From Candidatus Latescibacterota bacterium (GTDB taxonomy: Bacteria > Latescibacterota > UBA2968): a stretch of 64,000 bases of DNA. The translations under genes and the position numbers were made by a program. The stretch lies in assembly GCA_965116885.1 (NCBI GenBank), contig OZ220741.1:256001-320000 (forward strand), written 5' to 3'. Shown here piece after piece: positions 2,736 to 15,682 of the stretch. Within the stretch, counting starts at the first letter, position 1; each line of letters begins with the position of its first letter. The notes under the pieces are model-generated. The model worked only from the letters and a program-made list of their open reading frames with translations, made no database searches and had not been told where the DNA came from.

Positions 2736-4172
2736 TTACGAGGTTATTTCCAGACTATATCGTCGCTGCAACAAAGACGCATCGGCTTCTGCAATCTCCA
2801 TACACATTTCCATCGCCAATTCATAGCGATAGCGCGTCTGTTCACAAGAAACTGGATTTGGATACATCGGATCACCCGTTGTCGTCCGCGCCTCCCAAAG
2901 ACACCCGCCACCACACAGGTTGCGCGCCCAGCACGTCTTGCACTCAGGACGATTATTCACATTGAACTGCGCGTCAAAATGCTGCTGCTTTGCGCGGTCA
3001 ATACCCGCAAACACATTCCCCATCTTAAACTCGGGTGCATCGGCCAAACTCGAACAAAAATAAATCGACCCATCTGCTGCAATCGCCAAATACTGCTTAC
3101 CACCGAGGCATCCATGACAAGATTTCTTGCGCGTCAAAAGTTTTTGAATCCGTGGATCAAACTCTTCATCTTCACCCTTTTCGCCACTTAAAATAGCTTT
3201 GAGCGCACGCTGGCTCCGCTTGTAAATTTGCTGCTTCAAAACAGGTATGTGTTCTTCCCCAATCGCATAAGGCGCATCGGGGGAGACAACAGCCAGGTCA
3301 ACAAGCGCGTTATCAGTACCCAGAGAACGCAACGCATCGGCAATCTGATCTTCATCCATATCATAAGCTGTCATAACAGCCTGCAAATACACGCGCTCAG
3401 GTGCCTCAGCAGTCAGTTTCTTTACATTCTTTGCCACAACATCATAAGTCCCAGAACCATTGTGAAACTTGCGAATGCGATCCTGTGTTTTACGCCCCCC
3501 ATCCAGGCTGACCTTAATCTGAAACTTTTCATCAACCAAAAACTGCTTCATCTCGTCGGTCAACAGCGTGCCATTGGTCACAATGCCAAAACCAACCTGC
3601 ACACCCAATCGCGCTCCCAGGGATTTGGCAAACGGGACAAGCTCTCTCATCAATGGAAAATTCAGAAGCGGTTCCCCGCCAAAAAAATCAATCTGGCACC
3701 GCCCAAACCCCTGAGCTTCAGTGACAATCCAGCGTATGGCTTGCTCGGCAACTTTGGGTTGCATCAGCATGGCCTTACCGCCATAATCCCCGCCATGAGC
3801 AAAGCAATAAGCACATTGAATATTGCACGTATGGGAAACGTGCAAGGACACCTGCAAACGGTCTGTCTGCGACACGCCACAGGCAGCTACCCCTTCTGTT
3901 GTCGGTACATTAGCTACTACAGGTAGTGCACCATCCGAAATCAAACCCACCTGCGCCAATTCGCCGATAGCCTGAGCAATTTCTTCTGCCTCGTATTGAT
4001 CAACCAATACTTGAACAACCTGTGAAGCCGACAAGCCCTCACAACACTCTAAAATCGCCTCGAAAAGGGTATCCAGTTCAAAAAACAGACCTGTCTCAAC
4101 CTGATAGACAATCGGCTGTTTTTGCTCCTCGGTTTCAAAAAGATGCATGTCACATTTCTGAATGCACAGCAT
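2736..4172 (-). CDS. radical SAM/SPASM peptide maturase with N-terminal RRE (CteB/PapB/QhpD-like)
   Basis: HVSHTCNIQCAYCFAHGGDYGG (CxxxCxxC), FFGGEPLLNF, SPASM CLGG..GSIYFC..CKTCWARNLCGGGC..C, ~80 aa PqqD-like N-terminus; ATG 4172 after GAGGAG. Confidence 0.93.
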   Translation of the reverse strand: MLCIQKCDMHLFETEEQKQPIVYQVETGLFFELDTLFEAILECCEGLSASQVVQVLVDQYEAEEIAQAIGELAQVGLISDGALPVVANVPTTEGVAACGVSQTDRLQVSLHVSHTCNIQCAYCFAHGGDYGGKAMLMQPKVAEQAIRWIVTEAQGFGRCQIDFFGGEPLLNFPLMRELVPFAKSLGARLGVQVGFGIVTNGTLLTDEMKQFLVDEKFQIKVSLDGGRKTQDRIRKFHNGSGTYDVVAKNVKKLTAEAPERVYLQAVMTAYDMDEDQIADALRSLGTDNALVDLAVVSPDAPYAIGEEHIPVLKQQIYKRSQRALKAILSGEKGEDEEFDPRIQKLLTRKKSCHGCLGGKQYLAIAADGSIYFCSSLADAPEFKMGNVFAGIDRAKQQHFDAQFNVNNRPECKTCWARNLCGGGCLWEARTTTGDPMYPNPVSCEQTRYRYELAMEMCMEIAEADASLLQRRYSLEITS

Positions 4173-4196
4173 AGCACACACTCCTCAAAACCGAAA

Positions 4197-4391
4197 TCAC
4201 TTATCCTGATCATCAGCTTGATCAAAATCGTCCCAATCGTCATCGTCATCGGGAAAGGGTAAGAGAGGAACGCAGAAGACACCGGGGTAACAGCTACCAA
4301 TTTCAAAACTCCTCGTAGCCTGATACATAAGAATACCACCTTCTTCATTCATCGTTCCATTGATCAAGGTCAGCTTGCTCTGGGTCACCAT
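4197..4391 (-). CDS. putative RiPP precursor peptide (64 aa)
   Basis: AAGGAGAGAAAT-ATG; MVTQSKLTLINGTMNEEGGILMYQATRSFEIGSCYPGVFCVPLLPFPDDDDDWDDFDQADDQDK; 24 nt upstream of rSAM start, downstream of a sigma54 promoter. Confidence 0.8.
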   Translation of the reverse strand: MVTQSKLTLINGTMNEEGGILMYQATRSFEIGSCYPGVFCVPLLPFPDDDDDWDDFDQADDQDK

Positions 4392-4447
4392 ATTTCTCTC
4401 CTTAAACAATGCGAAAATCTAATGCCGTTACTGTCCGCCTATCATAC

Positions 4448-4463
4448 TGCAAGTTCCGTGCCA
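4448..4463 (-). promoter_or_regulatory. sigma54 -24/-12 promoter for precursor-rSAM operon
   Basis: Minus strand TGGCACGGAACTTGCA = TGGCAC-N5-TTGCW, 56 nt upstream of the precursor ATG. Confidence 0.88.
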
Positions 4464-4480
4464 AAAATCGTTTCAAAATA

Positions 4481-4511
4481 AAAAAAAGCACTTGAAAATT
4501 CTCAAGTGCTT
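4481..4511 (-). terminator. intrinsic terminator after kinase-bEBP gene
   Basis: Minus strand AAGCACTTGAGAATTTTCAAGTGCTT followed by a T-run. Confidence 0.6.
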
Positions 4512-4554
4512 GAAAAACAAAGAGATAAAATTTAAAAATTATTTTTATTACAAA

Positions 4555-4690
4555 TGCGACATTCAGATACAAATGTATCTAATATGATACAGTCTAACCA
4601 TTCATTTAAATATAATATGCATAACTGATTGATTTATATAAATATAAACGAAATGTAACCCAAATGATATTACTGTTACAAAATGATACA
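4555..4690. promoter_or_regulatory. putative enhancer (UAS) pairs and IHF site
   Basis: TGCGACATTCAGATACA 4555, TGTATCTAATATGATACA 4574, TGTAACCCAAATGATAT 4654, TGTTACAAAATGATACA 4674; minus-strand AATCAATCAGTTA at 4622-4634 fits IHF consensus WATCAANNNNTTR. Confidence 0.6.
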
Positions 4691-4702
4691 CCCGTTCAAC
4701 AT

Positions 4703-7700
4703 CTATCTCAACCCCAAACGATTGATCTTTCTATATAAGCTAATGCGTGCCACCCCCAGTTCTTCGGCCGCATGCGTAATATTACCCTCGCATCTCTCGA
4801 GTGCGTTCCGAATCAACCGTCTCTCATACTCTTGCATAAGATCTTGTAAACGCCCCTGGTATTCAGTAGAGACATCTGACACTTTGTGCCCAACAGCTTC
4901 TGAAAACAAATCGGGTGTAATTGCGCCATCTTCTTCTGCCAAGGCCACAGCAAGCCGAATCTCATTCTCCAACTCGCGCACATTACCAGGCCAATTGTAA
5001 CTTGTGAGCGCCCTGATCGCACCCACTGTCAGCCCTCCAACAGACTTGTTTGCCTCTTCCTTTGCCCGAATGAGCAAATGTTCGGTCAATACTGGTACAT
5101 CTTCAATATGTTCTCGCAAAGGCGGCATATCGATCTGAATCACGTGCAACCGGTAATACAAATCTTCACGGAAAGAACCATTTTCAACTTCTTTTTTTAA
5201 ATCTCGATTGGTCGCTGCAATAATGCGTACATTCACTGTGCGATCCTCTGTTTCTCCCACGCGCCGGATCTCGCCTTCTTGTAATACCCGCAACAAACTC
5301 CTTTGTAACTCTGGCGGGGCATCTCCGATTTCATCTAAAAAAACCGTGCCGCCATCAGCCGCTTCAAAAATCCCCTTATGATCTTCATTGGCACCTGTAA
5401 ACGCGCCTTTTTTGTGCCCAAACAACTCACTCTGCAATAACTCTGGTGAAAGTGCGGCACAATTTTCCGACAAAAATCGCCGGTCTTTGCGTGTGCTATT
5501 GTAGTGTATGGCACGCGCAGCCAATTCTTTACCCGTACCTGTCTCGCCCTGCACAAGCACGGGAATATCACTCTTTGCAGCGCGTTCTATAAGTTGATAG
5601 ATCGCCTGCATCGCATCGCTTTGTCCGACCATGTCGCCAAGCTGGTGCCGTCTTTCGACCTCTTGCTGCAAATATTGTGCCTTCTCTTCCAATTGTTCGT
5701 ACATCTTCGCATTAGCCAGTGCCACCCCCACCAGATTTGCAAATGCCTGTAAAAACGTCTGATCGGCTTCAGAAAATGCGTTGCTGATACCGCGATGATC
5801 CACATATAGCGCACCCATCACACCTTCCTTAACATGAAACAGAGGCACGCACAATACAGACCGAATGTCGTAGTCTATCACACTCTGATAGCGATTGAGC
5901 CTTTCGTCTGACTGTGCATCAAAGCTCAAAACGGGTTTATTGGTTTCAATAACCCCACGAATAATACCCCGACTCAGTGTTTCTGCATCATCTGCTTCTA
6001 CATTGTGGTGGCGCAGGGCATCAACCACAAAGCCTTTTTGGGTCTTATTTTTAATCGCAACAACTACCCGCTCTGCTGGATAAACAACCAACAAATTACC
6101 CAAAGTTCGATCCAATAACACCTTGACATCGCGCTCTGTTGTCAATTCCTGGCTCACATAGTAAAGCAAGCGCAAGCGATCAACAGACAATGTATCAACT
6201 GAAATCTCAGAACTAAGCGCGGCATCATCGCCGCGAGAAGATTTGCCCAATTGATCTAATAACACCTGTGTTTTCTCGAAAAAATAGGACATTTCCATTT
6301 CTCCAAACGCCTGTTTTGCCACTTCGAGATGTGCCTTAGCTCTTGGTACATCATCGCGCTTGAGATAAAACTCTCCTGCCATCAGCAATGCACGCGCCCA
6401 GTGATCGCCTTTGGATTCTCTTCGGCATTCAATCGCCTGCTCAAAAGCCTCTACTGCCTCAGCAGTCCGCCCTGCCTGGGCGAAAGCAACACCAATACCA
6501 GAATAAACCAGGGGCAATATGCCCGTGTACATACCCGATGTTTGTTGCGTACCTTCACTGGCTTTTTCTGCCCATTCAAGTGCAGTTTCCACATCTCCTA
6601 TTCTCACAGCAGCCGTTGCCGCAATCGCATAAGCGCGATAGACATAATCTTTTCGCGGTATTTCCAAAAAACGCTCTGCCGAGGTCTCAGCATATTCCAA
6701 TGCCTCGGCAAAATCACCGTGTTCCAGTGCCAATTCCCCCAAATAAAGAAAACTCACTGCCTCACCATACACAAGTCCTTGCTTCTGCCACTCACCAATG
6801 ACTTCATGGCAAACGGCTTCCGCACGGTTGAGGTCGCCCAGATAAAAATAAACTCTTGTAAGTAAATTAAGTGCCCAAAGGCGATAGTGCTCCAGACCAA
6901 GTTGCCTAAAGGTCTTTACAGCAGTTTCCAAATACCCTTTAGCTATCTCAAATTGAAATCCCACCAATGCAACCATACCTTCTCGCCCTTGTATAAAAAC
7001 TTCATTTTGTGAATCTCCCAGACTACGGCGTTTCTCTATTTCCCGACGCATATACGCAATCGCTTCTTCGTGCTGTCCAGACACATCGCACAACTGAGCC
7101 AAACTACCCAACGCCTGAATTTCGCCCTCGACATCACCCAGACCACTATAAAGTTGTAATGCCTCCAGCATATATTCTTTTGCAATTTCTCCATGTTGAA
7201 GTACAATGTGAATACCACCTTCATTCCACAAAATACGCGCCTTCAAATCGTTCCGGTCATCGGGCAATAACGCCTTTGCCTCGTCTAAAAGTTCCAGTGC
7301 TCTATTATGCTGGCTACAATTGCGCAGTGCATCTGCATAATCGCACAAAAATTCGATCACATCTGCCCGCGATTCAAAAGCGTCATCCGCTGTCCAGTCC
7401 CGTACAGCCTCAAATCGCATCAATGCTTGGCGACAGGCGTGTTGTTCCAGTGCTTTTTTACCTGATAGGCGCATATATTTCACAGCCTTATCTCGTTCTT
7501 TTGCCGCCGCAAAATGATCCGCCAATTCTTCTGTCAATTCTTCTGCATCTTCCGTCTCTTCCAGAGCATTGCCAATTTCACGATGCAACAGACGCCGCCG
7601 CACAGCTTGCATACGATTGTAAATTGCACGACGACACAAACCCTGTGCAAAGCGATACCGCTCTTCATCGCCATAAGTAATTAACAGCCCTTCTGCAATC

Positions 7701-9508
7701 AGGCTATCAAGCACATCCAGCAGTTCCAACTCATCGCCGCGCCAAACCGCAGCCAATAATTCAAAAGAAAAATCACTCAAAAAAACACAGGCGTATTCCA
7801 TTACCTGGCGTTGCACCGCAGAAAGGGCAGTTATGCGCCTGTACAAAACCTCTGAAATGTCATTGGATAACAGGGTCTCGGGAAACTCTCCCCACTGCCA
7901 ATTGCCGTACACATTTTGCCGAACCACATCGGCATGCACCAACGTCCTCACAGCCTCCACGACAAACAGGGATTGTCCACCTGTTTCTTGGAACAGAGTT
8001 TGCAATGCATCAGAAGGTATGGACCGCTCCCCCAACATCGACGCCGCTAAATACCCCACTTCTTCTTGAGGTAGATTTTCCAACTGAATATGAGTCGCCT
8101 CGGCAAATTCATTGCCGTGTATAAACTTTTCAACTTCCTCTGGAAGCAGCTCCAGGTTAGACCATCGGCAAGTCAGGCATAACAAAAATGGACAGGGTTC
8201 TGGATCGCGCAACACATACTGCAAAAATTCCAGGGTCAATTCATCAAGCCATTGAACATCTTCCAAACACAACACAATGGGCTGTTTCTGACGCAGACGC
8301 TTTAATAACTGCAACCAGCGCTCCATAACAGAAAACTTGTCCGTCTCTAATAAATCGGGCAATCCCGCCATCAAATCCGTCGTCTTTACCTGCTGAAAAG
8401 CATCGATCAACGCACCGTATATTTGTCCACCCTCTTCCTGCCCTGCACCTTTCAAACACAGAAAGTCATGGATCAGCGCATCGCCCAAGAGTTCTTCAAT
8501 CAGTCTCGTTTTACCCACTCCAGACTCACCGGAGATCAAAACTACGCGCTGTTTGCCAGCATGTACATCCTGCAAGATCGCACCCAGTATCTTCATTTCA
8601 GATTCCCGCCCAACAAATTGCGGCCGCATAACTTTTCTATGCACATCGCGCTGCTCTTCATTCGGAAGCACCAACTCCGATGGTAAGGCACGCACCAGTT
8701 CCTCTGCCGACTGGTAACGATCAACACGCTCCTTTGCCAGCAACTTCAACACAATTTGTTTCATCTGTTCGGGAACCGCGATATTGACCTGGCCTATTGG
8801 TAGCGGTGACTCTCGAATATGCTTCATAATAACAGATATTGGGTTTTGTCCAGAAAAGGGCGGTGTGTCCGTGAGGACCTCGTATAAAATTACGCCCAAT
8901 GAGTACAGATCTGACCGATGATCCACCCACAAACCCTTACCTTGCTCTGGCGACATATACTCCGCGGTACCAATCGTTGCGCCTGTCTGCGTAATGGAGG
9001 CACTATGTAGATGCCTGAATTTCGCCAACCCCAGATCCAGGATCGTGGTCTCAATCCCCTCTTTTGTCTCCACAACCATAATATTGGATGGCTTGAGATC
9101 GCGATGCACCGCACCCTGCGCGTGGATATAAGCCAACCCCTCGGCAATTTGTTGTATCAAATCAAAAAAGTGAGAAGTTCGAAATTGCCCTAAAAATGCC
9201 TGATCGGCAATTATTTTTTCCAATGTCTTTCCGGGCAAATATTCCATTGTAAAATAGGGACGCTCCTCGGCAAAGCCCCAGGTGTATGTGCGAACCAGAC
9301 GCGGGTGCTGGAATCGGTTCAACACCTGAAATTCTCTGTGAAAACGGCGGCGCACAGCCTGCTCATCCATCATTTCATTCAAAATTTTGAGCGCACACTC
9401 CTCGTCTTGCTCCAGGTCCAGAACCCGATAGACTTCACCCATGCCCCCGGATCCCAGATGTGTCTGGATTTGATATTTGTTGTCGAGAATGGTACCGATT
9501 TCAAACAT
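4703..9508 (-). CDS. Ser/Thr kinase - STAND/AAA ATPase - TPR - GAF - sigma54 activator - Fis HTH fusion (1601 aa)
   Basis: GSGGMGEVY, ALK, HRDLKPSN, DLG, GTAEYMSPE; FVGRESE..GESGVGKT..LEDVQWLD; helical repeats; GAF RSVLCVPL..GALYVD; GETGTGKE, ELFGHKKGAFTGA, FLDEIG, WPGNVREL, C-terminal HTH; likely start MFEIG at 9508. Confidence 0.95.
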   Translation of the reverse strand: MFEIGTILDNKYQIQTHLGSGGMGEVYRVLDLEQDEECALKILNEMMDEQAVRRRFHREFQVLNRFQHPRLVRTYTWGFAEERPYFTMEYLPGKTLEKIIADQAFLGQFRTSHFFDLIQQIAEGLAYIHAQGAVHRDLKPSNIMVVETKEGIETTILDLGLAKFRHLHSASITQTGATIGTAEYMSPEQGKGLWVDHRSDLYSLGVILYEVLTDTPPFSGQNPISVIMKHIRESPLPIGQVNIAVPEQMKQIVLKLLAKERVDRYQSAEELVRALPSELVLPNEEQRDVHRKVMRPQFVGRESEMKILGAILQDVHAGKQRVVLISGESGVGKTRLIEELLGDALIHDFLCLKGAGQEEGGQIYGALIDAFQQVKTTDLMAGLPDLLETDKFSVMERWLQLLKRLRQKQPIVLCLEDVQWLDELTLEFLQYVLRDPEPCPFLLCLTCRWSNLELLPEEVEKFIHGNEFAEATHIQLENLPQEEVGYLAASMLGERSIPSDALQTLFQETGGQSLFVVEAVRTLVHADVVRQNVYGNWQWGEFPETLLSNDISEVLYRRITALSAVQRQVMEYACVFLSDFSFELLAAVWRGDELELLDVLDSLIAEGLLITYGDEERYRFAQGLCRRAIYNRMQAVRRRLLHREIGNALEETEDAEELTEELADHFAAAKERDKAVKYMRLSGKKALEQHACRQALMRFEAVRDWTADDAFESRADVIEFLCDYADALRNCSQHNRALELLDEAKALLPDDRNDLKARILWNEGGIHIVLQHGEIAKEYMLEALQLYSGLGDVEGEIQALGSLAQLCDVSGQHEEAIAYMRREIEKRRSLGDSQNEVFIQGREGMVALVGFQFEIAKGYLETAVKTFRQLGLEHYRLWALNLLTRVYFYLGDLNRAEAVCHEVIGEWQKQGLVYGEAVSFLYLGELALEHGDFAEALEYAETSAERFLEIPRKDYVYRAYAIAATAAVRIGDVETALEWAEKASEGTQQTSGMYTGILPLVYSGIGVAFAQAGRTAEAVEAFEQAIECRRESKGDHWARALLMAGEFYLKRDDVPRAKAHLEVAKQAFGEMEMSYFFEKTQVLLDQLGKSSRGDDAALSSEISVDTLSVDRLRLLYYVSQELTTERDVKVLLDRTLGNLLVVYPAERVVVAIKNKTQKGFVVDALRHHNVEADDAETLSRGIIRGVIETNKPVLSFDAQSDERLNRYQSVIDYDIRSVLCVPLFHVKEGVMGALYVDHRGISNAFSEADQTFLQAFANLVGVALANAKMYEQLEEKAQYLQQEVERRHQLGDMVGQSDAMQAIYQLIERAAKSDIPVLVQGETGTGKELAARAIHYNSTRKDRRFLSENCAALSPELLQSELFGHKKGAFTGANEDHKGIFEAADGGTVFLDEIGDAPPELQRSLLRVLQEGEIRRVGETEDRTVNVRIIAATNRDLKKEVENGSFREDLYYRLHVIQIDMPPLREHIEDVPVLTEHLLIRAKEEANKSVGGLTVGAIRALTSYNWPGNVRELENEIRLAVALAEEDGAITPDLFSEAVGHKVSDVSTEYQGRLQDLMQEYERRLIRNALERCEGNITHAAEELGVARISLYRKINRLGLR

Positions 9509-9661
9509 AAAAGCAACCACCGTCAGAAGCGGTGTACAACTGGTCAATTTCCAGACCAGTTCATCAGGATATGCAAGATTAAATGCATGACAAGATATAG
9601 CGTTGTTGCGTAAGGTCAAATATATATTTGGGGAATCACCGTCGAAAACATTAGCAGTATA

Positions 9662-9700
9662 AACCAAAAAACCACGCCCAAAGGACGTGGTTTTTTGGTT
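9662..9700. terminator. intrinsic terminator after GWxTD gene (symmetrical)
   Basis: AACCAAAAAACCACG-cccaaagga-CGTGGTTTTTTGGTT inverted repeat. Confidence 0.7.
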
Positions 9701-9770
9701 ATAGACTTGACTCGTTTTAGTCGATAACAGAAATAAATCCACTGGTCGAGACAAAAGTCGAGAAGGTCAT

Positions 9771-12251
9771 TTACTCTACAATCCGAAAATAGACGTATTT
9801 TCTATCCGTCTGCTCAGTTCGCTTGTCCTTCGCCAATACCGTCAATTGATAAATCCCTTCAGGCACCTGGTTCACATCGATCTGCAAATACGTGAAATCA
9901 TCTTCTCGATTGCCTTCGTAATTTGCCGTCACTGTGCGCGTCAAATCGCCATCTTTTGATCGCTCGATCTTCAAGCCCTCAGCGGCGATATGATGAACCT
10001 GCCCACCACTCGTATAAACCCTCGTCTCGCCCCATATATCGCTATCTGCGAATACGCTACTGCCCTCCTCACTATCCGCTGACCAACTGGCCTGCAACTC
10101 CTCGGCAACTATATGATCTATTTGTCCACTCTGCAGATCAATCTCAGTTCTACCCATCGTCTCAATCAGATCTTGAGACGCGAATAATGTGGGCGATAGC
10201 GTATCTATCTCTGGCTTGCCAATGGTGTAGGAGATCTCATACTGCGTGCTGCCAAAATTGTCGCGTTTGAGATCATACAGTTCCAGATAGATAAAGACCG
10301 GTTCAGATGGTGAAAATGTGCGGACGGGATTGGGTGTGATGTGCAGATCATCACGGCTTTCTGGCAATGCTTCCTTCGCTTGAATATCACTGCCGACCAA
10401 CAGATCACTCAGATGAAAGGTCTCATCGCCATAGACATACTGCTTCTCATCGCGTGCTATACCAATGAACCCAGATGTCTGATCCATAAATTCTACTGAA
10501 AAATGATAGCGTCCCTGGGGTACAGACACCTGGCGCGAGACCAACAGGTGATCGTTGCGATGCTTCGCGGCTGCGTTTTGTGCAGGTTTCTGTGGCGGTA
10601 ATGCGAAGGTCCTGGATAGGCGATCATTATACATATCATTCCACTGTTCATCAAAGAAGAAGACGCCATCCCAAAAACTCACCTTGCCCGTTTCAAAATT
10701 TTCTGCTAATCGGTCTTTCGGAATCATATAGCTGAGTTCGACCCGCACGCTGTCTCGTTCTTCAAAGGCGGCGATCTGATGGGGAAGGGTGTATTTGCGA
10801 TCGAGGTAAGGATCGACAAACCGTTGCTCTGTTTTTTTGAATACATTATATGAGGCTTCCCGAAGTGTACGAGGCACAGGAGCAAAGGCTCGTCTCAGCG
10901 TAAATTTAGGATCCCTATCCGCGAGCACCCCAAACTCAGGAAGCTTAGCCCCGAAGTCGTATTGACGGAAAACACTTGCTCCTACAGGTAGGCGCTGGTT
11001 GACACCATACCATGAACCGCCGCAAAAATACCAGCTATCATCCGTAGTGCCACAAAATTTGAACTGAAAGTCTTCGTAATACCAGAATTCCATCATTGCA
11101 GCATCCAGGACCTCTTCAGAATCCCATGTCCCTTTATTGGTTGTCACGCGACGTCTATATCTTCCAAATTTGATATAAGTCTTCCCCATATCCGTCTGCC
11201 AGCCTTCAACATCATCTGAAAATCGCCTGAACCGCAAATTCGAATACGCCATACGACCAAAGTGCTCCATCTTTCTTTCATTAAAATCAGATAAATAGAG
11301 TGGGTCCTGGTGCTTCCAAAACATCTCGCGTTCCAATAGCGCATCTATCGTCTGCGTCGTATCGCGGGGTGCATGATCTTCTTCGGGCACAAGCAGGTCG
11401 ATAGATTCGAGTAACTCGCGTTCTTCAATACTTATCAAGTCAAGGGCGCGTTGATAGTATTCATGCGATTCATCGAATTCGCCAATCTGATAGGCAGCAA
11501 GGCCACAGAATAATAGTGCATTTTTGTCATCTGGGTTGTGCGCGTACAAGTCTTGCATCAAGGTTTGAAACGCATACCAGTCCTCATCTTCAAAGTAGAG
11601 TATGCCCAAAAAATAATAAGGTTGCTGGTTAGCTCCATCCAATTGGATGCTTTTTCGCAGGACCTGCACTGCTTCTTGTTTGGATTCCTCGGCAAAGGTC
11701 TTGAAATCTTTTATCCTATGATTCATTGCCATTTTATCGAAATCTCTGAATATAAGGGATCTCATGTCCATCTCTTGTGATGGCGCTCTTCTATCTTTCT
11801 GTGACAGGAAATCATACACCCAAAACATACCTATACTATTGAGGACATCCGTATTGTTGGGATGCTTTTTCATCACGTTCTTGAATTGGTTCAATGCCCG
11901 AAATCGAAAGCTCTGTGCCCACCAGATTTTCCCGCGTGTCAGCCGATATTCAGCATTGTCGGGATCACTTGCGATTGCCTGCTGTATCATCCGCATTGCA
12001 CGCTGTCGGCCATTCACGCTGTGGTCCAACAGATGCAGTTTGGCCAATTCGTTGTATGCAGGGGCATAATTTCTGTCTTTGGAAATAATCTCCTCGAAAG
12101 CTTTGATGCTTTCCTTCCGACTCACCTGACCAACTTGCTCCAGTGCATCCTGAAACAGCGCATCTATTGTGGTTTCGCCTCTGGACAAGCCAGAACCAAA
12201 GATGCAAAACAACAGTGTAAAACCCGTATAAATTACTGATCCCGCTTTCAT
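9771..12251 (-). CDS. secreted TPR + GWxTD domain protein (826 aa)
   Basis: Signal peptide-like MKAGSVIYTGFTLLFCIFGSGLSRG after GGAG; TPR helices; FWKHQDP..NERKMEHFGRMAYSNLRF..EGWQTDMGKTYIKFG; beta-rich C-terminus. Confidence 0.9.
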   Translation of the reverse strand: MKAGSVIYTGFTLLFCIFGSGLSRGETTIDALFQDALEQVGQVSRKESIKAFEEIISKDRNYAPAYNELAKLHLLDHSVNGRQRAMRMIQQAIASDPDNAEYRLTRGKIWWAQSFRFRALNQFKNVMKKHPNNTDVLNSIGMFWVYDFLSQKDRRAPSQEMDMRSLIFRDFDKMAMNHRIKDFKTFAEESKQEAVQVLRKSIQLDGANQQPYYFLGILYFEDEDWYAFQTLMQDLYAHNPDDKNALLFCGLAAYQIGEFDESHEYYQRALDLISIEERELLESIDLLVPEEDHAPRDTTQTIDALLEREMFWKHQDPLYLSDFNERKMEHFGRMAYSNLRFRRFSDDVEGWQTDMGKTYIKFGRYRRRVTTNKGTWDSEEVLDAAMMEFWYYEDFQFKFCGTTDDSWYFCGGSWYGVNQRLPVGASVFRQYDFGAKLPEFGVLADRDPKFTLRRAFAPVPRTLREASYNVFKKTEQRFVDPYLDRKYTLPHQIAAFEERDSVRVELSYMIPKDRLAENFETGKVSFWDGVFFFDEQWNDMYNDRLSRTFALPPQKPAQNAAAKHRNDHLLVSRQVSVPQGRYHFSVEFMDQTSGFIGIARDEKQYVYGDETFHLSDLLVGSDIQAKEALPESRDDLHITPNPVRTFSPSEPVFIYLELYDLKRDNFGSTQYEISYTIGKPEIDTLSPTLFASQDLIETMGRTEIDLQSGQIDHIVAEELQASWSADSEEGSSVFADSDIWGETRVYTSGGQVHHIAAEGLKIERSKDGDLTRTVTANYEGNREDDFTYLQIDVNQVPEGIYQLTVLAKDKRTEQTDRKYVYFRIVE

Positions 12252-12351
12252 GTTTTTCTCCGTATCTACCGTGAACCCTGCGAAATGTGATAAAAGCAAT
12301 CGAAATTGCAACTTGAGAGATCACCGCGGCTTTGTGTACGCAAAAATATAA

Positions 12352-12367
12352 AGCAATTTCCGTGCCA
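12352..12367 (-). promoter_or_regulatory. sigma54 -24/-12 promoter for GWxTD gene
   Basis: Minus strand TGGCACGGAAATTGCT, preceded by TTT as in the 4448 copy. Confidence 0.88.
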
Positions 12368-12386
12368 AAATATTCTTCTCTATATT

Positions 12387-12470
12387 TTACAATTAGTTAC
12401 AAAAATTTGTGCCATGAACGCAGTTTAATAAGTGTCCGATTTTGATACAGTGGTGTCCGAAAATGAACAC
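12387..12470. promoter_or_regulatory. putative IHF-like site and tandem UAS
   Basis: TTACAATTAGTTA at 12387 (imperfect IHF); TGTCCGATTTTGATACA 12433 and TGTCCGAAAATGAACAC 12454, 21-bp period. Confidence 0.55.
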
Positions 12471-12474
12471 TTAA

Positions 12475-12512
12475 TAAAAAAATAGGCACATTGTTTTATT
12501 TCAATGTGCCTA
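12475..12512 (-). terminator. intrinsic terminator after TRAP permease
   Basis: TAGGCACATTG / CAATGTGCCTA 11-bp stem with T-run on minus strand. Confidence 0.7.
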
Positions 12513-12595
12513 CTGTATCTTCCTTAGAACCATCGTTTACCACAACGAATGCTCAAATGTGCTGGGCTTGCTTATAAAGTCGCGCAACATCAATT

Positions 12596-14491
12596 CTAAT
12601 TGAGATGGATAGACCTGGCATGTTTTTGCACCAACATCAAAACGAGAAAAATCGCCGCCCCAACAGCATGACATACCAGCAAAGGCCAAAGCAACAGCAC
12701 CGCTGCCGCCAGGAATAAGACGCGGTATAGAACACCCAGCGACACCATGTGAAAACCCTCAGAAGCCGCTGCAAAAGACAGCAGCCCCAGAAGCGTAGCT
12801 ATCACAGTCTCAATAACGCGCCAGGTCTCCCCTTCAAAAAGGATAGGCGTATAGCAAAAAAGCAAGGGAATAAAATAAATACCCTTGGCAATGCGCCACG
12901 ACTCAAAACCCGTACGCAGCGGATTCGCCCCCGCAATACCCGCGGCGGAATACGCAGCCAGACAAACCGGCGGCGTGACATTGGCATCTTGCGAATACCA
13001 AAAAATCAGCAAATGCGCCGCAATCAGACTCACCCCCAGATTGGTCAGCGCGGGCGCAGCCAGCACTGCCAGCACGATATAAGAAGCCGTCACCGGCAAG
13101 CCCATGCCCAAAATCAGAGACGCAACGGCAATGAGCACAACAGTAATAAGCACACTGCTTCCGGCAATCGCCGAAATAAGCAAAGAAAATTTGATCCCAA
13201 CGCCCACCATCAGCACCACACCCACAATAATACCAGCGCACAAAAGAATAATACCCGTTGTAATCATATTGTGAGCACCCAGCGCAAGGGCATCGACAAT
13301 ATCTCGAATATTCATGCGCGTGTTCTTATTCAACCAACTCGTCACAACAATACTTGCAGTTCCCGTTGCCGCTGCAAACGTGGGTGTAAAACCGTAGATC
13401 AGTGTGCCCACCAGCACCCCAATAGGAATCGCAAAATGCCAGCCTTCGCGGATCGTATCGCGGATATCCGGAAGTTCCGAAGCAGGCAAAGGCACAATCC
13501 CCCGTTTTCGCGCGCGAAAATGAATAAAAAAAGTAACACTCAAAAAATAGATAAGCGCGGGGATAAAGGACACGGCGACAATAGTCAGATAGGGAATTTG
13601 CGTCCACTGACTCATAATAAACGCGCCCGCGCCCATAATCGGTGGCATGAGTTGACCGCCCGTAGATGCCGCCGCCTCGACCGCACCTGAAAACGTAGGC
13701 GAAAAACCCGTGCGCTTCATCATCGGGATCGTGAGCGAACCCGACCCCACCGTATTCGCCACAGCACTCCCCGAAATTGAACCGAGCATACCACTGGCAA
13801 AAACCGCCATCTTTGCCGGTCCCCCCACCGTGCGCCCGAGCAACGCGAGCGCCAGACGAATCATAAAATCGCCCGCACCCGAACGCAGGAGAAACGCGCC
13901 AAAAAGCACAAAAAGCGCGACAAAAGTAGATGAAATCGTCGCAATCGTACCAAAAATACCATCGGGTGCGAAATACATGCGATACAACAAGCGCGGCAAT
14001 GACACACCGGGAAACGCCCATATACCCGAAATATATTGCCCCCAAAAAAGCGCGTAAGTGAGAAATACGAGCGCGAGCAACGGAATAAAAAAACCAGTCG
14101 TACGACGGGTAATCTCGAGCAAAAGGAGAATCGCAATACCCGCAAAAACGAGATCAGCCGTATTCGGCACCTCATTGCGGGCGTGCAACGCATCCTCAAA
14201 AAACACGAGATAAAGGGCGACGGCAACAGATAGGATGGCGAAAAAATAATCGAGAATCAGCGTGCGCGAGGCATAGCGCGAAGAAATGGGATAAAGCAGA
14301 TATCCCAAAAAAAGAATGAAGGCATAATGGGTGGCATTGCGCTGCAATTCGGGCAAAACGCCCAGCGTATTGCTCCACAGGTGAAACAGAGACAGACACA
14401 CCCCCACAACAACGACCAGCACCTGATGCCTGCCAGTAAGCACGCGATGGGGCGTACTCACTTCGCCGCCCTGTTCAAATTCCGAATTCAA
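12596..14491 (-). CDS. TRAP transporter fused permease (TAXI-type DctQM)
   Basis: Polytopic; GGPAKMAVFASG..GSAVAN, EAAASTGGQLMPPIMGAGAFIM, LGMGLPVTASYI, VTPPVCLAAY. Confidence 0.95.
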   Translation of the reverse strand: MNSEFEQGGEVSTPHRVLTGRHQVLVVVVGVCLSLFHLWSNTLGVLPELQRNATHYAFILFLGYLLYPISSRYASRTLILDYFFAILSVAVALYLVFFEDALHARNEVPNTADLVFAGIAILLLLEITRRTTGFFIPLLALVFLTYALFWGQYISGIWAFPGVSLPRLLYRMYFAPDGIFGTIATISSTFVALFVLFGAFLLRSGAGDFMIRLALALLGRTVGGPAKMAVFASGMLGSISGSAVANTVGSGSLTIPMMKRTGFSPTFSGAVEAAASTGGQLMPPIMGAGAFIMSQWTQIPYLTIVAVSFIPALIYFLSVTFFIHFRARKRGIVPLPASELPDIRDTIREGWHFAIPIGVLVGTLIYGFTPTFAAATGTASIVVTSWLNKNTRMNIRDIVDALALGAHNMITTGIILLCAGIIVGVVLMVGVGIKFSLLISAIAGSSVLITVVLIAVASLILGMGLPVTASYIVLAVLAAPALTNLGVSLIAAHLLIFWYSQDANVTPPVCLAAYSAAGIAGANPLRTGFESWRIAKGIYFIPLLFCYTPILFEGETWRVIETVIATLLGLLSFAAASEGFHMVSLGVLYRVLFLAAAVLLLWPLLVCHAVGAAIFLVLMLVQKHARSIHLN

Positions 14492-14493
14492 AC

Positions 14494-15543
14494 CTATTCC
14501 CCTATCAGAGACGGCGCAATATCGATACCCTTCTCGCGATAATAGCGCGCGGCACCCGCATGCAGGGGAACAGCCAGGCCCATCGTCGCTTTATCGAGAG
14601 ACATTGCGAGCGTGGCCTTGTGGATATTTTGAATCTCCTCTAAATTTTCATAAATAGTTTTTGTAATCTCATAGACCACGTCCTCGGGCAAATCTGCTCT
14701 ACACGCCAAAAAATTGGGTTGTGCAATCGTCTCAATCGCTTCGGACTGCCCGGGATACGTATTGGCCGGAATAATATAGCGCGTCCACATGGGAAACGCA
14801 TTTTGGACCGCCGCGAGATGATCATCGCTAAAAGCAAGCACAGAAACCCCGTCTGCACCGAGCTGGGCAAAAGCCTGCGTCACAGCAGCCACGGGCGGAC
14901 CAGCCGAAAGCGTCGCCCCTGCAATACGGCCGTCAATCATAGCCTGAGCAGACGGACTATAACCCAAATACTCAGACGTAAAATCCTCATCCGGAGAAAT
15001 ATTAAGCGCTGCGAGAATAGTTCGCGTCGCGCCTTCTGTACCACTGCCGCGTTTGCCAATAACGTATTTGCGGCCGAGTTTTCTCAAGTCCTCAACAGTA
15101 CCTGTTTTGGCATCAGACGCCCGAAGTATAAAATGCTCGACATTCTCCCAGAGCAGGGTAATAGACCGGAGATCTCTAACCGCTTGCCCCTCATAAGTAC
15201 TCTCTCCGCGATAAGCCATCGCACCGTACAAACCCAGCAAAATCGCCAGATGTGCCTCTCGATTGACCAGCATCTGAATATTCTCGGCCGACCCTGCAGA
15301 ATTGATAGCTGCGACCACAATCCCGGGCTGTAGCTTCTGTGTAATCGTCGTACTCAGCGCAACACCCACCGGATAATACGTACCGCCGGGCGTGGCTGTC
15401 GCAATAATCAAATTCTGCGTCTGCATACCCTCCTGCGGTGCTCCACAGGAGATACAGAATATAAAGGCGAAAAGCAACCACCGATGAACACGGATAAACA
15501 CAGATGAAAGGAAAGGATGCAAAAAGGAAGATATACGCGACAT
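14494..15543 (-). CDS. TAXI family TRAP solute-binding lipoprotein
   Basis: IATATPGGTYYPVG, SAGSAENI, GSGTE, VPLHAGAARYYRE; lipobox-like CISC; start uncertain (15543 or 15555). Confidence 0.92.
   Translation of the reverse strand: MSRISSFLHPFLSSVFIRVHRWLLFAFIFCISCGAPQEGMQTQNLIIATATPGGTYYPVGVALSTTITQKLQPGIVVAAINSAGSAENIQMLVNREAHLAILLGLYGAMAYRGESTYEGQAVRDLRSITLLWENVEHFILRASDAKTGTVEDLRKLGRKYVIGKRGSGTEGATRTILAALNISPDEDFTSEYLGYSPSAQAMIDGRIAGATLSAGPPVAAVTQAFAQLGADGVSVLAFSDDHLAAVQNAFPMWTRYIIPANTYPGQSEAIETIAQPNFLACRADLPEDVVYEITKTIYENLEEIQNIHKATLAMSLDKATMGLAVPLHAGAARYYREKGIDIAPSLIGE
15477..15511 (+). repeat. 10-nt-period tandem repeat element (CAGATGAACG type)
   Basis: accaccgatgaacacggataaacacagatgaaagg; related to copies at 54652 and 59193. 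Confidence 0.6.
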
Positions 15544-15682
15544 AAAAAACCTCATATCAAAAAAGTGAACAGATATTTATCAGCCTAATTATACCCGCCC
15601 ACCTATATGCGTCAAGGGAAAACACCTTTGCGCCTTGACAACCTCTGTTGCGATTTCTATACTTCCCCTGAGGAATAGACCT

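Follow-up and report, generated by a model that had tools for sequence, protein, structure and literature searches.

A kinase-STAND sigma-54 activator and its predicted peptide/radical-SAM operon as a conserved three-gene module in Latescibacterota

Introduction

In the SCIFF/ranthipeptide systems, represented by CteA-CteB of Clostridium thermocellum and by ScfA-ScfB, a radical S-adenosylmethionine (radical-SAM)/SPASM enzyme follows a short precursor peptide that bears cysteine. CteB, whose structure is available as PDB entry 5WGG, is a SCIFF thioether synthase with an N-terminal peptide-recognition domain, and a table in the same review places SCIFF-derived ranthipeptides under quorum sensing (PMC8326336). 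In Myxococcus xanthus, sigma-54 promoters and a dedicated activator, Nla28, control natural-product genes (PMC7910581). Here we describe a locus that combines elements of both kinds. It lies in a stretch of 64,000 nucleotides (the window) from a Candidatus Latescibacterota bacterium (assembly GCA_965116885.1, contig OZ220741.1, positions 256,001 to 320,000) and comprises, in the direction of transcription, a gene for a GWxTD protein, a gene for a large sigma-54 activator with Ser/Thr kinase and STAND domains, a gene for a small peptide, and a gene for a radical-SAM/SPASM peptide maturase.

A first-pass annotation of the window had proposed that a single sensor switches on both the GWxTD protein and the modified peptide. 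The explanation that we favor, and to which we assign a probability of about 0.75, is that the activator, peptide, and maturase genes form a self-contained three-gene module in which the activator would be dedicated to the peptide/maturase operon, with the GWxTD gene lying outside of it.

Results

All genes of the locus are on the minus strand, and the four genes occupy the positions at which they were first annotated. In what follows, G000 is the source genome (5.56 Mb) and M1 is the copy of the module found in the window. A tblastn search revealed three full copies of the module in G000: M1, M2 (G000:C1:77304-84093), and M3 (G000:C1:1919723-1926524). Among these copies the activators are 81% identical and the maturases are 93% identical, and Pfam scans of the three neighborhoods revealed nothing else in common, including no shared exporter or protease. 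Matches to the maturase at E <= 1e-40 are present in 29 of 168 genomes of the phylum (counting G000) and in 15 of 20 genomes of the genus. We assessed synteny within Latescibacterota at 20 loci from nine genomes of the genus, six loci of a second family (f2), and two loci of a third (f3). A full-length activator gene lies directly upstream of the maturase gene at all 20 genus loci, and the peptide was detected at 18 of these by tblastn and at all 20 when open reading frames (ORFs) were read. The same gene order is seen at all six f2 loci and at the two f3 loci, even though the activators there are just 33-60% identical. A further seven loci have no full activator; these are mostly short contigs, and L081 retains only part of the AAA+ domain. 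At L082, about 11.6 kb of upstream DNA contains no activator.

The spacer between the activator and peptide genes is conserved as well. In M1 it contains a cluster of candidate upstream activator sites at 4555..4690 made of inverted repeats of TGTATC-like half-sites, which form four palindrome-like sites at 4690-4674, 4671-4654, 4591-4574, and 4571-4555. These are followed by a hairpin with a T-run at 4480..4511, found both by reading the sequence and by a consensus scan, and by a putative sigma-54 promoter at 4448..4466. This hairpin likely ends transcription of the activator gene, and it would keep read-through from reaching the sigma-54 promoter. A (T/A/G)GGCAC-N5-TTGC element is present at the same distance behind the activator stop codon in all 23 genus modules, 18 of which fit the strict pattern while five read GGGCAC, and it is also present at a rearranged locus of genome G076 that is considered below. 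Likewise, all six f2 modules carry a GG(C/T)A(C/T)-N5-TTGC element. Every genus module keeps the hairpin between the sites and the promoter, and hairpins that differ from it occupy this place in the other families. Taken as predictions from sequence, these parts give good support to a conserved unit that consists of the activator, the palindromic sites, a terminator, a sigma-54 promoter, the precursor peptide, and the maturase.

The three spacers of the source genome are collinear, with sites, an AT-rich block, the hairpin, and the promoter at equal distances, and each has a palindrome of its own: TGTATC-N6-GATACA in M1, TGCATCC-N4-GGATGCA in M2, and TGTAAAC-N4-GTTTACA in M3. Among 24 genus modules, the recognition helix of the Fis-type helix-turn-helix (HTH) domain of the activator falls into four classes, each of which matches a site type. 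The 10 modules with a TRAGLQKK helix all have two to three TGC-N12-GCA sites and no TGT-N12-ACA sites, and the 14 modules with other helices all lack TGC-N12-GCA sites. On a quick tree of the activators built without the HTH region, the TRAGLQKK/TGC class forms a single clade; the TRAGLQKK switch is one evolutionary event, not ten, in which about six half-sites changed in parallel with the helix. When up to one mismatch is allowed, the genome has four M2-type palindromes, three of them in the M2 spacer, and two of the M3 type, which both lie in the M3 spacer. The first site of M1, taken exactly, is unique in the genome, and no second cluster of M1-type sites was seen elsewhere in it. Since the palindromes are private to each spacer, each activator appears to be dedicated to one operon. 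The co-variation of helix and site and the gene order kept in three copies, 20 genus loci, and eight loci of other families together argue for the first-pass proposal that the activator controls the adjoining peptide/radical-SAM operon.

The activator gene (4703..9508) encodes a protein of about 1601 amino acids. The longest ORFs over-call the starts of both the activator and the GWxTD genes, and ATG 9508 is the most likely start of the activator because its relatives are about 1600 amino acids long. Pfam and NCBIfam matches give the domain order Pkinase, AAA_16, TPR, GAF, Sigma54_activat, and HTH_8. The AAA+ domain (PF00158, 249.4 bits) contains the GAFTGA motif, and the STAND part (PF13191, 92.3 bits versus a cut-off of 32.6) and the repeats (TPR_12, 70 versus 30.1) are also well above threshold, with a TPR_MalT match of 42.7 falling just below its cut-off of 45. 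In 35 sequences with identities down to 41%, the catalytic Lys, HRD, and DLG of the kinase, the STAND P-loop, the Walker A and B motifs of the AAA+ domain, and GAFTGA are invariant, or nearly so for GAFTGA and Walker A/B. The best 120 homologs of the activator are all 79-94% identical to it, and the names given in public records are limited to "protein kinase" and "sigma 54-interacting transcriptional regulator". At 9566..9619, ahead of the activator gene, a consensus scan shows two overlapping candidate -35/-10 pairs of the sigma-70-like type, each with 9 of 12 matches. A separate short PspF-like sigma-54 activator of 345 amino acids, with AAA+ and HTH domains only, is encoded just downstream of the maturase gene in eight of the 10 TRAGLQKK-class modules (L020 14162-15196, which is G000:C1:84162-85199, and the matching places in L056, L057, L060, L063, L066, L069, and L072).

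The predicted operon begins with an ORF of 64 amino acids (4197..4391) that has an AGGAG 8 nt before its ATG. The maturase gene follows after a gap of 24 nt and encodes 478 amino acids (2736..4172) from ATG 4172, which has a GAGGAG 8 nt upstream; its longest ORF begins at GTG 4181. The peptide has no Pfam or NCBIfam match. Its public relatives comprise 85 clusters at the 90% level, none with a Pfam family and the only name shown being "hypothetical protein", and there are three paralogs in the source genome. The sequences share a conserved N-terminal part containing KLTLING, an invariant cysteine, a hypervariable stretch, a VPPLPFP motif, and an Asp-rich tail. Exactly one cysteine is present in 72 of the 85 clusters, and the cysteine is invariant in 78 aligned sequences. 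The KLTLING leader residues, Cys34, P42, P45-F46-P47, D50, and D54 are the invariant positions, and the five to six residues after the cysteine are hypervariable.

The maturase matches Radical_SAM (PF04055, 56.7 bits), Fer4_12, and SPASM (PF13186, 22.0 versus a cut-off of 21.5). In nine maturase sequences the CxxxCxxC and SPASM cysteines (C113, C117, and C120 and the C-terminal cysteines) are invariant. Its best NCBIfam matches are to the SCIFF (TIGR03974), nif11, QhpD, and PapB maturases, all below their cut-offs, and its nearest solved relative is 5wgg_A, with an E-value of 5.8e-58 over residues 17-451. At its N-terminus, a PqqD-like match (PF05402) scores 17.9 versus a cut-off of 23.4, and the alignment with 5wgg_A, which starts at residue 17, spans this region. 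Of 79 loci with maturase relatives, 24 encode proteins at least 43% identical, all from records with Latescibacterota or Latescibacteria in the title except two that name Gemmatimonadota or Gemmatimonas; the remaining 55 are about 28-35% identical and are mostly from Clostridia. Two RNA-library runs from a single study, labelled sponge metagenome, contain contigs that fall on the maturase gene, with short pieces on the GWxTD and activator genes. These contigs give little or no cover over the peptide and most of the activator, although holes in such contig data prove nothing.

Past the maturase stop codon, on the same strand, there are two small ORFs: one of 77 amino acids with no family match (2485-2718), which begins 17 nt beyond the stop, and next to it one of 67 amino acids with no Pfam match (2264-2467). 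The 77-amino-acid ORF is absent in relatives, whose contigs (from runs X2, X3, and X4) lack 268-276 bases at that place. Further downstream, on the minus strand at 2-2059, is a gene for an ADOP-like permease that is 808 amino acids long in the genome.

The first-pass annotation had pointed to near-identical sigma-54 promoters before both the peptide operon and the GWxTD gene, and this holds. The window has exactly two matches to TTTTGGCACGGAA(C/A)TTGC(A/T), both on the minus strand (4448-4466 and 12352-12370), whereas 0.01 occurrences of this 19-base pattern are expected by chance. Both cores, at 4463-4449 and 12367-12353, are exact matches to TGGCAC-N5-TTGC with the -24 GG and -12 GC elements. 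The genome also encodes RpoN (PF04552, 203.8 bits, above cut-off; G000:C1:4259585-4260058). Genome-wide, TGGCA[CT]-N5-TTGC occurs at 75 sites versus 6 in a reversed control, and TGGCACGGAANTTGC with up to one mismatch occurs at 19 sites versus none in the control. Given the excess of 75 sites over 6, both cores in the window lie near the general sigma-54 consensus of this organism. Their similarity to one another therefore says little, and the information sits in the upstream sites.

These sites were originally described as tandem TGT-N11-ACA motifs related between the two regions. One TGT-N11-ACA site is indeed present in each upstream region, but the sites of this spacing are not tandem and the two motif families differ. 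The peptide region has TGT-N11-ACA at 4690-4674 and TGT-N12-ACA at 4591-4574, and the GWxTD region has TGT-N11-ACA at 12449-12433 and TGT-N10-ACA at 12469-12454. In the former the sites belong to the TGTATC inverted repeats, and in the latter they belong to a 17/18-mer that has CGGACAC at its end and is present as a direct repeat. The proposed division of the locus into three co-oriented units separated by terminators is borne out by hairpins with T-runs at 12512-12476, 9696-9664, and 4511-4480. The second of these (9664..9696), behind the GWxTD gene, was read from the sequence and was missed by the consensus scan. A near-copy of it (CCACGTCC...GCGTGG, then a T-run) is found at about 1649.3k of G000:C1, upstream of another GWxTD paralog and behind the gene that precedes that paralog, and it may be a repeated terminator element.

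The GWxTD gene (9771..12251) most likely starts at ATG 12251 and encodes an 826-amino-acid protein with TPR repeats and an N-terminal signal-like segment. Its GWxTD domain matches TIGR04514 with 50.4 bits versus a cut-off of 28, but Pfam PF20094 with only 16.7 versus 26.9. The region upstream of this gene is one copy of a dispersed cassette at 12352..12512. Its parts are a hairpin (12512-12476), an exact direct repeat of 17/18-mers at a distance of 20 bp (12469-12453 and 12449-12432), and a sigma-54 promoter (12370-12352). A blastn search of the genome with the 200 bp before the GWxTD gene gave 13 hits, and the two site sequences of the cassette have 11 and 10 exact occurrences, all of them tandem, versus 0-2 for controls. 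The other copies lie near 23.9k, 96.8k, 581.1k, 1195.5k, 1208.4k, 1229.5k, 1234.7k, 1995.1k, 2025.9k, 3147.8k, 4854.6k, and 5153.5k of G000:C1, the last of which has the sites and no obvious sigma-54 promoter. Of 14 proteins encoded behind these 12 copies, 10 are duplicated FtsX permeases of the ADOP-like kind, none of which reaches the TIGR03434 cut-off, and the other four are a MacB/DarD-like ABC ATPase, a leucine-rich-repeat protein, a ResA-like oxidoreductase, and a protein with weak ankyrin-type matches. A second GWxTD paralog is the second gene of one cassette operon.

A spacing of about 20 bp between direct repeats is typical for LytTR sites, and the promoter of the 1229.5k cassette copy is nonetheless of the sigma-54 type. 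Just upstream of that copy, at L135 (G000:C1:1228300-1229420), a histidine-kinase fragment and a REC-LytTR response regulator come to an end.

The cassette is present in all 21 genus genomes, including five without the maturase. When these five were searched with the kinase-STAND part of the activator, four gave only kinase-domain matches of 28-35% identity, and G090 gave none. Given that the cassette is present in genomes without this activator, a different activator, present in all of them, must bind the cassette sites. None of the approximately 26 sigma-54 AAA+ matches in the source genome adjoins a cassette copy.

Synteny likewise separates the GWxTD gene from the module. No GWxTD gene is found near any of the 28 modules of other genomes or near the two other modules of the source genome, whose GWxTD paralogs (72, 68, and 57% identical) adjoin neither M2 nor M3, and no GWxTD match was found in at least 6 kb upstream of the 20 genus loci. 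Conversely, 28 of 29 other GWxTD loci in the genus have no activator within 1.5 kb. In the upstream stretches examined, sigma-54 promoters are missing from ten GWxTD orthologs, and the exact cassette 17-mer is found at none of the other 29 genus GWxTD loci. GWxTD genes also form tandem arrays in sister genomes, with five within 23 kb at G089:C1:244018-266738 and three in a row at G084:C1:5262888-5270036. A three-part system of activator, GWxTD protein, and peptide is not supported by these results, and the observation on which it was built is confirmed only in part. As one component of the explanation that we favor, the GWxTD gene is probably a neighbor brought in by rearrangement and run by a cassette that is found mainly before ADOP-type ABC permease genes. 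Adjacent near-consensus sigma-54 promoters do not amount to a regulon; the upstream sites decide, and here they split the two units. Upstream of the cassette, on the same strand, the window contains a TAXI/TRAP transporter pair (12596-15555).

Discussion

The working of the module that we propose builds on gene order, motifs, conservation, and co-variation; the binding of DNA, the signal that induces the module, the cross-link chemistry, and what becomes of the peptide and what it does are inferred from these. The activator would be cytoplasmic and transcribed alone, probably from a sigma-70-type promoter. Its HTH domain would bind the three to four palindromic sites just past its own stop codon, and, upon a trigger to its TPR and/or GAF sensor part, it would remodel sigma-54 RNA polymerase at the promoter about 100-240 bp downstream. 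The terminator hairpin between the sites and the promoter would make the operon strictly activator-dependent. The operon would then yield the 64-amino-acid, one-cysteine precursor and its CteB/SCIFF-like enzyme, with a thioether cross-link from the cysteine as the most likely modification and, by inference only, a Cys-to-Asp thioether as the most likely product. Where a genome has two to three modules, their distinct recognition helices and sites should prevent cross-talk.

The layout of the precursor, with a conserved head, a variable middle that contains the cysteine, and an acidic tail, recalls AgrD. This likeness bears on a wider reading in which each module is a private, pherotype-like autoinduction circuit: the TPR or GAF part of an activator would sense its own cross-linked peptide with the hypervariable residues after the cysteine, amplify the synthesis of that peptide via sigma-54, and signal to other targets via the kinase. 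Thanks to diverged recognition helices and sites, two to three such circuits could run side by side in a cell without cross-talk. We regard this reading as possible but rather unlikely. A complex prediction of the TPR region of the activator (residues 560-1115) with the peptide scored 0.01 against a mark of 0.32, which is evidence neither for nor against it.

Several points weigh against a self-contained module. The binding of the activator to its sites, the start of the transcript, and the product of the peptide are themselves predictions. Given that the TRAGLQKK class is a single clade, its count of 10 out of 10 largely reflects shared ancestry, and the co-variation of helix and site rests on few independent events. 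The maturase is below every NCBIfam cut-off (254.6 versus 425 for TIGR03974). The RNA contigs come from a mixture of relatives and therefore indicate presence in an RNA library only, not the start, strand, or level of a transcript. The left half and the outer bases of the cassette site TGTATCAAAATCGGACA are also found in the first site of the activator, TGTATCATTTTGTAACA (11 of 17 bases), and this activator class might cross-bind cassette sites. In genome G076, furthermore, an orthologous locus on contig C32 (L246, G076:C32:38000-52794, positions 5664-14154; TRAP-transporter flank at 92% DNA identity) has an M1-class activator with the same sites, hairpin, and TGGCAC-N5-TTGC promoter, which here leads directly into DUF218 and a GWxTD ortholog (84% DNA identity). 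Finally, this activator class and this GWxTD type lie within 0.26 kb of one another in G000, 1 kb in G076, and 21 kb in G089.

These last points, together with the adjacency and co-orientation of the two genes in the window, their sigma-54-type promoters, and the partial resemblance of the two sets of sites, are what speak for the view that the GWxTD envelope protein and the radical-SAM peptide share one kinase-STAND activator as their switch and act together. The G076 arrangement, however, lacks the peptide and the maturase at the locus. In G089 the module and DUF218 plus GWxTD are 21 kb apart, and the region upstream of DUF218 keeps only the -12 half of the promoter; the order in G076 would apparently result if about 21 kb were lost in one deletion from an arrangement like that of G089. 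The adjacency in the window is one of several products of rearrangement of one variable region, and the M1 activator class may have gained control of the GWxTD gene in G076. (In G076 the GWxTD gene is followed by a gene for a BlaI-type repressor, and about 640 bp lie between the GWxTD gene and the contig end.) With an activator within 1.5 kb at only one of the 29 other GWxTD loci, and with the GWxTD promoter being a copy of a cassette whose exact 17/18-mers precede other genes 10-11 times and which is also found in activator-less genomes, we consider joint control of the two products improbable.

We are similarly doubtful that the locus is a defense or conflict system, in which an Avs-like STAND/TPR sensor would detect an invader protein, the kinase would signal, and a toxic or protective modified peptide would be induced. 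The STAND and TPR architecture with an N-terminal enzymatic domain would suit such a role, as would the two to three diversifying paralogs per genome at varying locations, the hypervariable peptide core, and the lack of an exporter or protease common to the modules. Yet PADLOC returned generic domain matches only (the kinase to PD-T4-6, the AAA+ domain to RtcR, and the radical-SAM enzyme to pVip) and no system-level match, and no mobile-element or defense-island genes were seen in the three neighborhoods. It is more improbable still that the small ORF is not the substrate and that the enzyme modifies another protein, as QhpD does, or a small molecule: the place of QhpD among the best matches of a maturase below all family cut-offs and the sub-threshold PqqD-like match would allow this, but the ORF has a ribosome-binding site just upstream of the enzyme gene and is kept, with its invariant cysteine, in every module including those of distant families.

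The self-contained module that we favor would place a peptide natural product under an unusual regulator, a single chain of 1600 amino acids that unites Ser/Thr kinase, STAND switch, and GAF domain with a complete sigma-54 activator. Its activator/site pairs, of the TGTATC, TGCATC, and TGTAAA types, appear mutually insulated, making them natural examples of the orthogonal parts that are sought for sigma-54 circuit design. The precursors represent a large unnamed family, with at least 85 clusters of one-cysteine peptides from uncultured and apparently sponge-associated Latescibacterota, and offer a target for co-expression and structural work. Our literature searches found no published description of this arrangement or of a kinase-STAND-sigma-54 activator fusion, and no description of GWxTD; PMC12316311 does not mention radical SAM, RiPP (a peptide made by the ribosome and then modified post-translationally), or Latescibacter.

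Among known systems, the peptide operon most resembles SCIFF/ranthipeptide clusters, since 5wgg_A is the best solved match of the maturase and TIGR03974 is its best NCBIfam match. It differs from them in that the maturase is only about 30% identical to its nearest Clostridia-type relatives and remains far below the TIGR03974 cut-off, and in that the precursor has no family match and one invariant cysteine where the SCIFF precursor has six. It is also wired to sigma-54 through a kinase-STAND activator, for which we found no counterpart in descriptions of SCIFF. The Nla28 circuit shares the use of sigma-54 and a dedicated activator, but, according to that report, Nla28 is a response regulator paired with a histidine kinase and its targets are polyketide and non-ribosomal peptide genes; the text contains neither "radical SAM" nor "ribosomally" and has no RiPP content (PMC7910581).

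The C-terminal third of the activator, with its GAF domain, GAFTGA-containing AAA+ domain, and Fis-type HTH, resembles NifA and NorR, which are its best NCBIfam matches. NifA binds TGT-N10-ACA, and the upstream sites of the module are likewise of the TGT-N(10-12)-ACA kind. Unlike NifA, the activator scores 391.7 against TIGR01817, whose cut-off is 528.85, and has about 1100 extra N-terminal residues that contain the Ser/Thr kinase, the STAND NTPase, and the TPR repeats; unlike both NifA and NorR, its predicted target is a peptide operon. The TOMM kinase/cyclase fusion (TIGR03903) shares the layout of kinase, AAA_16, and TPR next to a modified-peptide cluster and matches the activator with 285 bits in three stretches, but its cut-off is 705.75, and no cyclase family is among the best 25 of 35 Pfam matches of the activator. 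STAND regulators of the MalT and PknK types are comparable, and the activator has, as MalT-like regulators do, an AAA_16 NTPase followed by TPR repeats. In the protein described here, the kinase-STAND-TPR portion is fused to a complete sigma-54 activator, so that, unlike in the TOMM, MalT, and PknK proteins, the sensor and the transcriptional output would be combined in a single chain.

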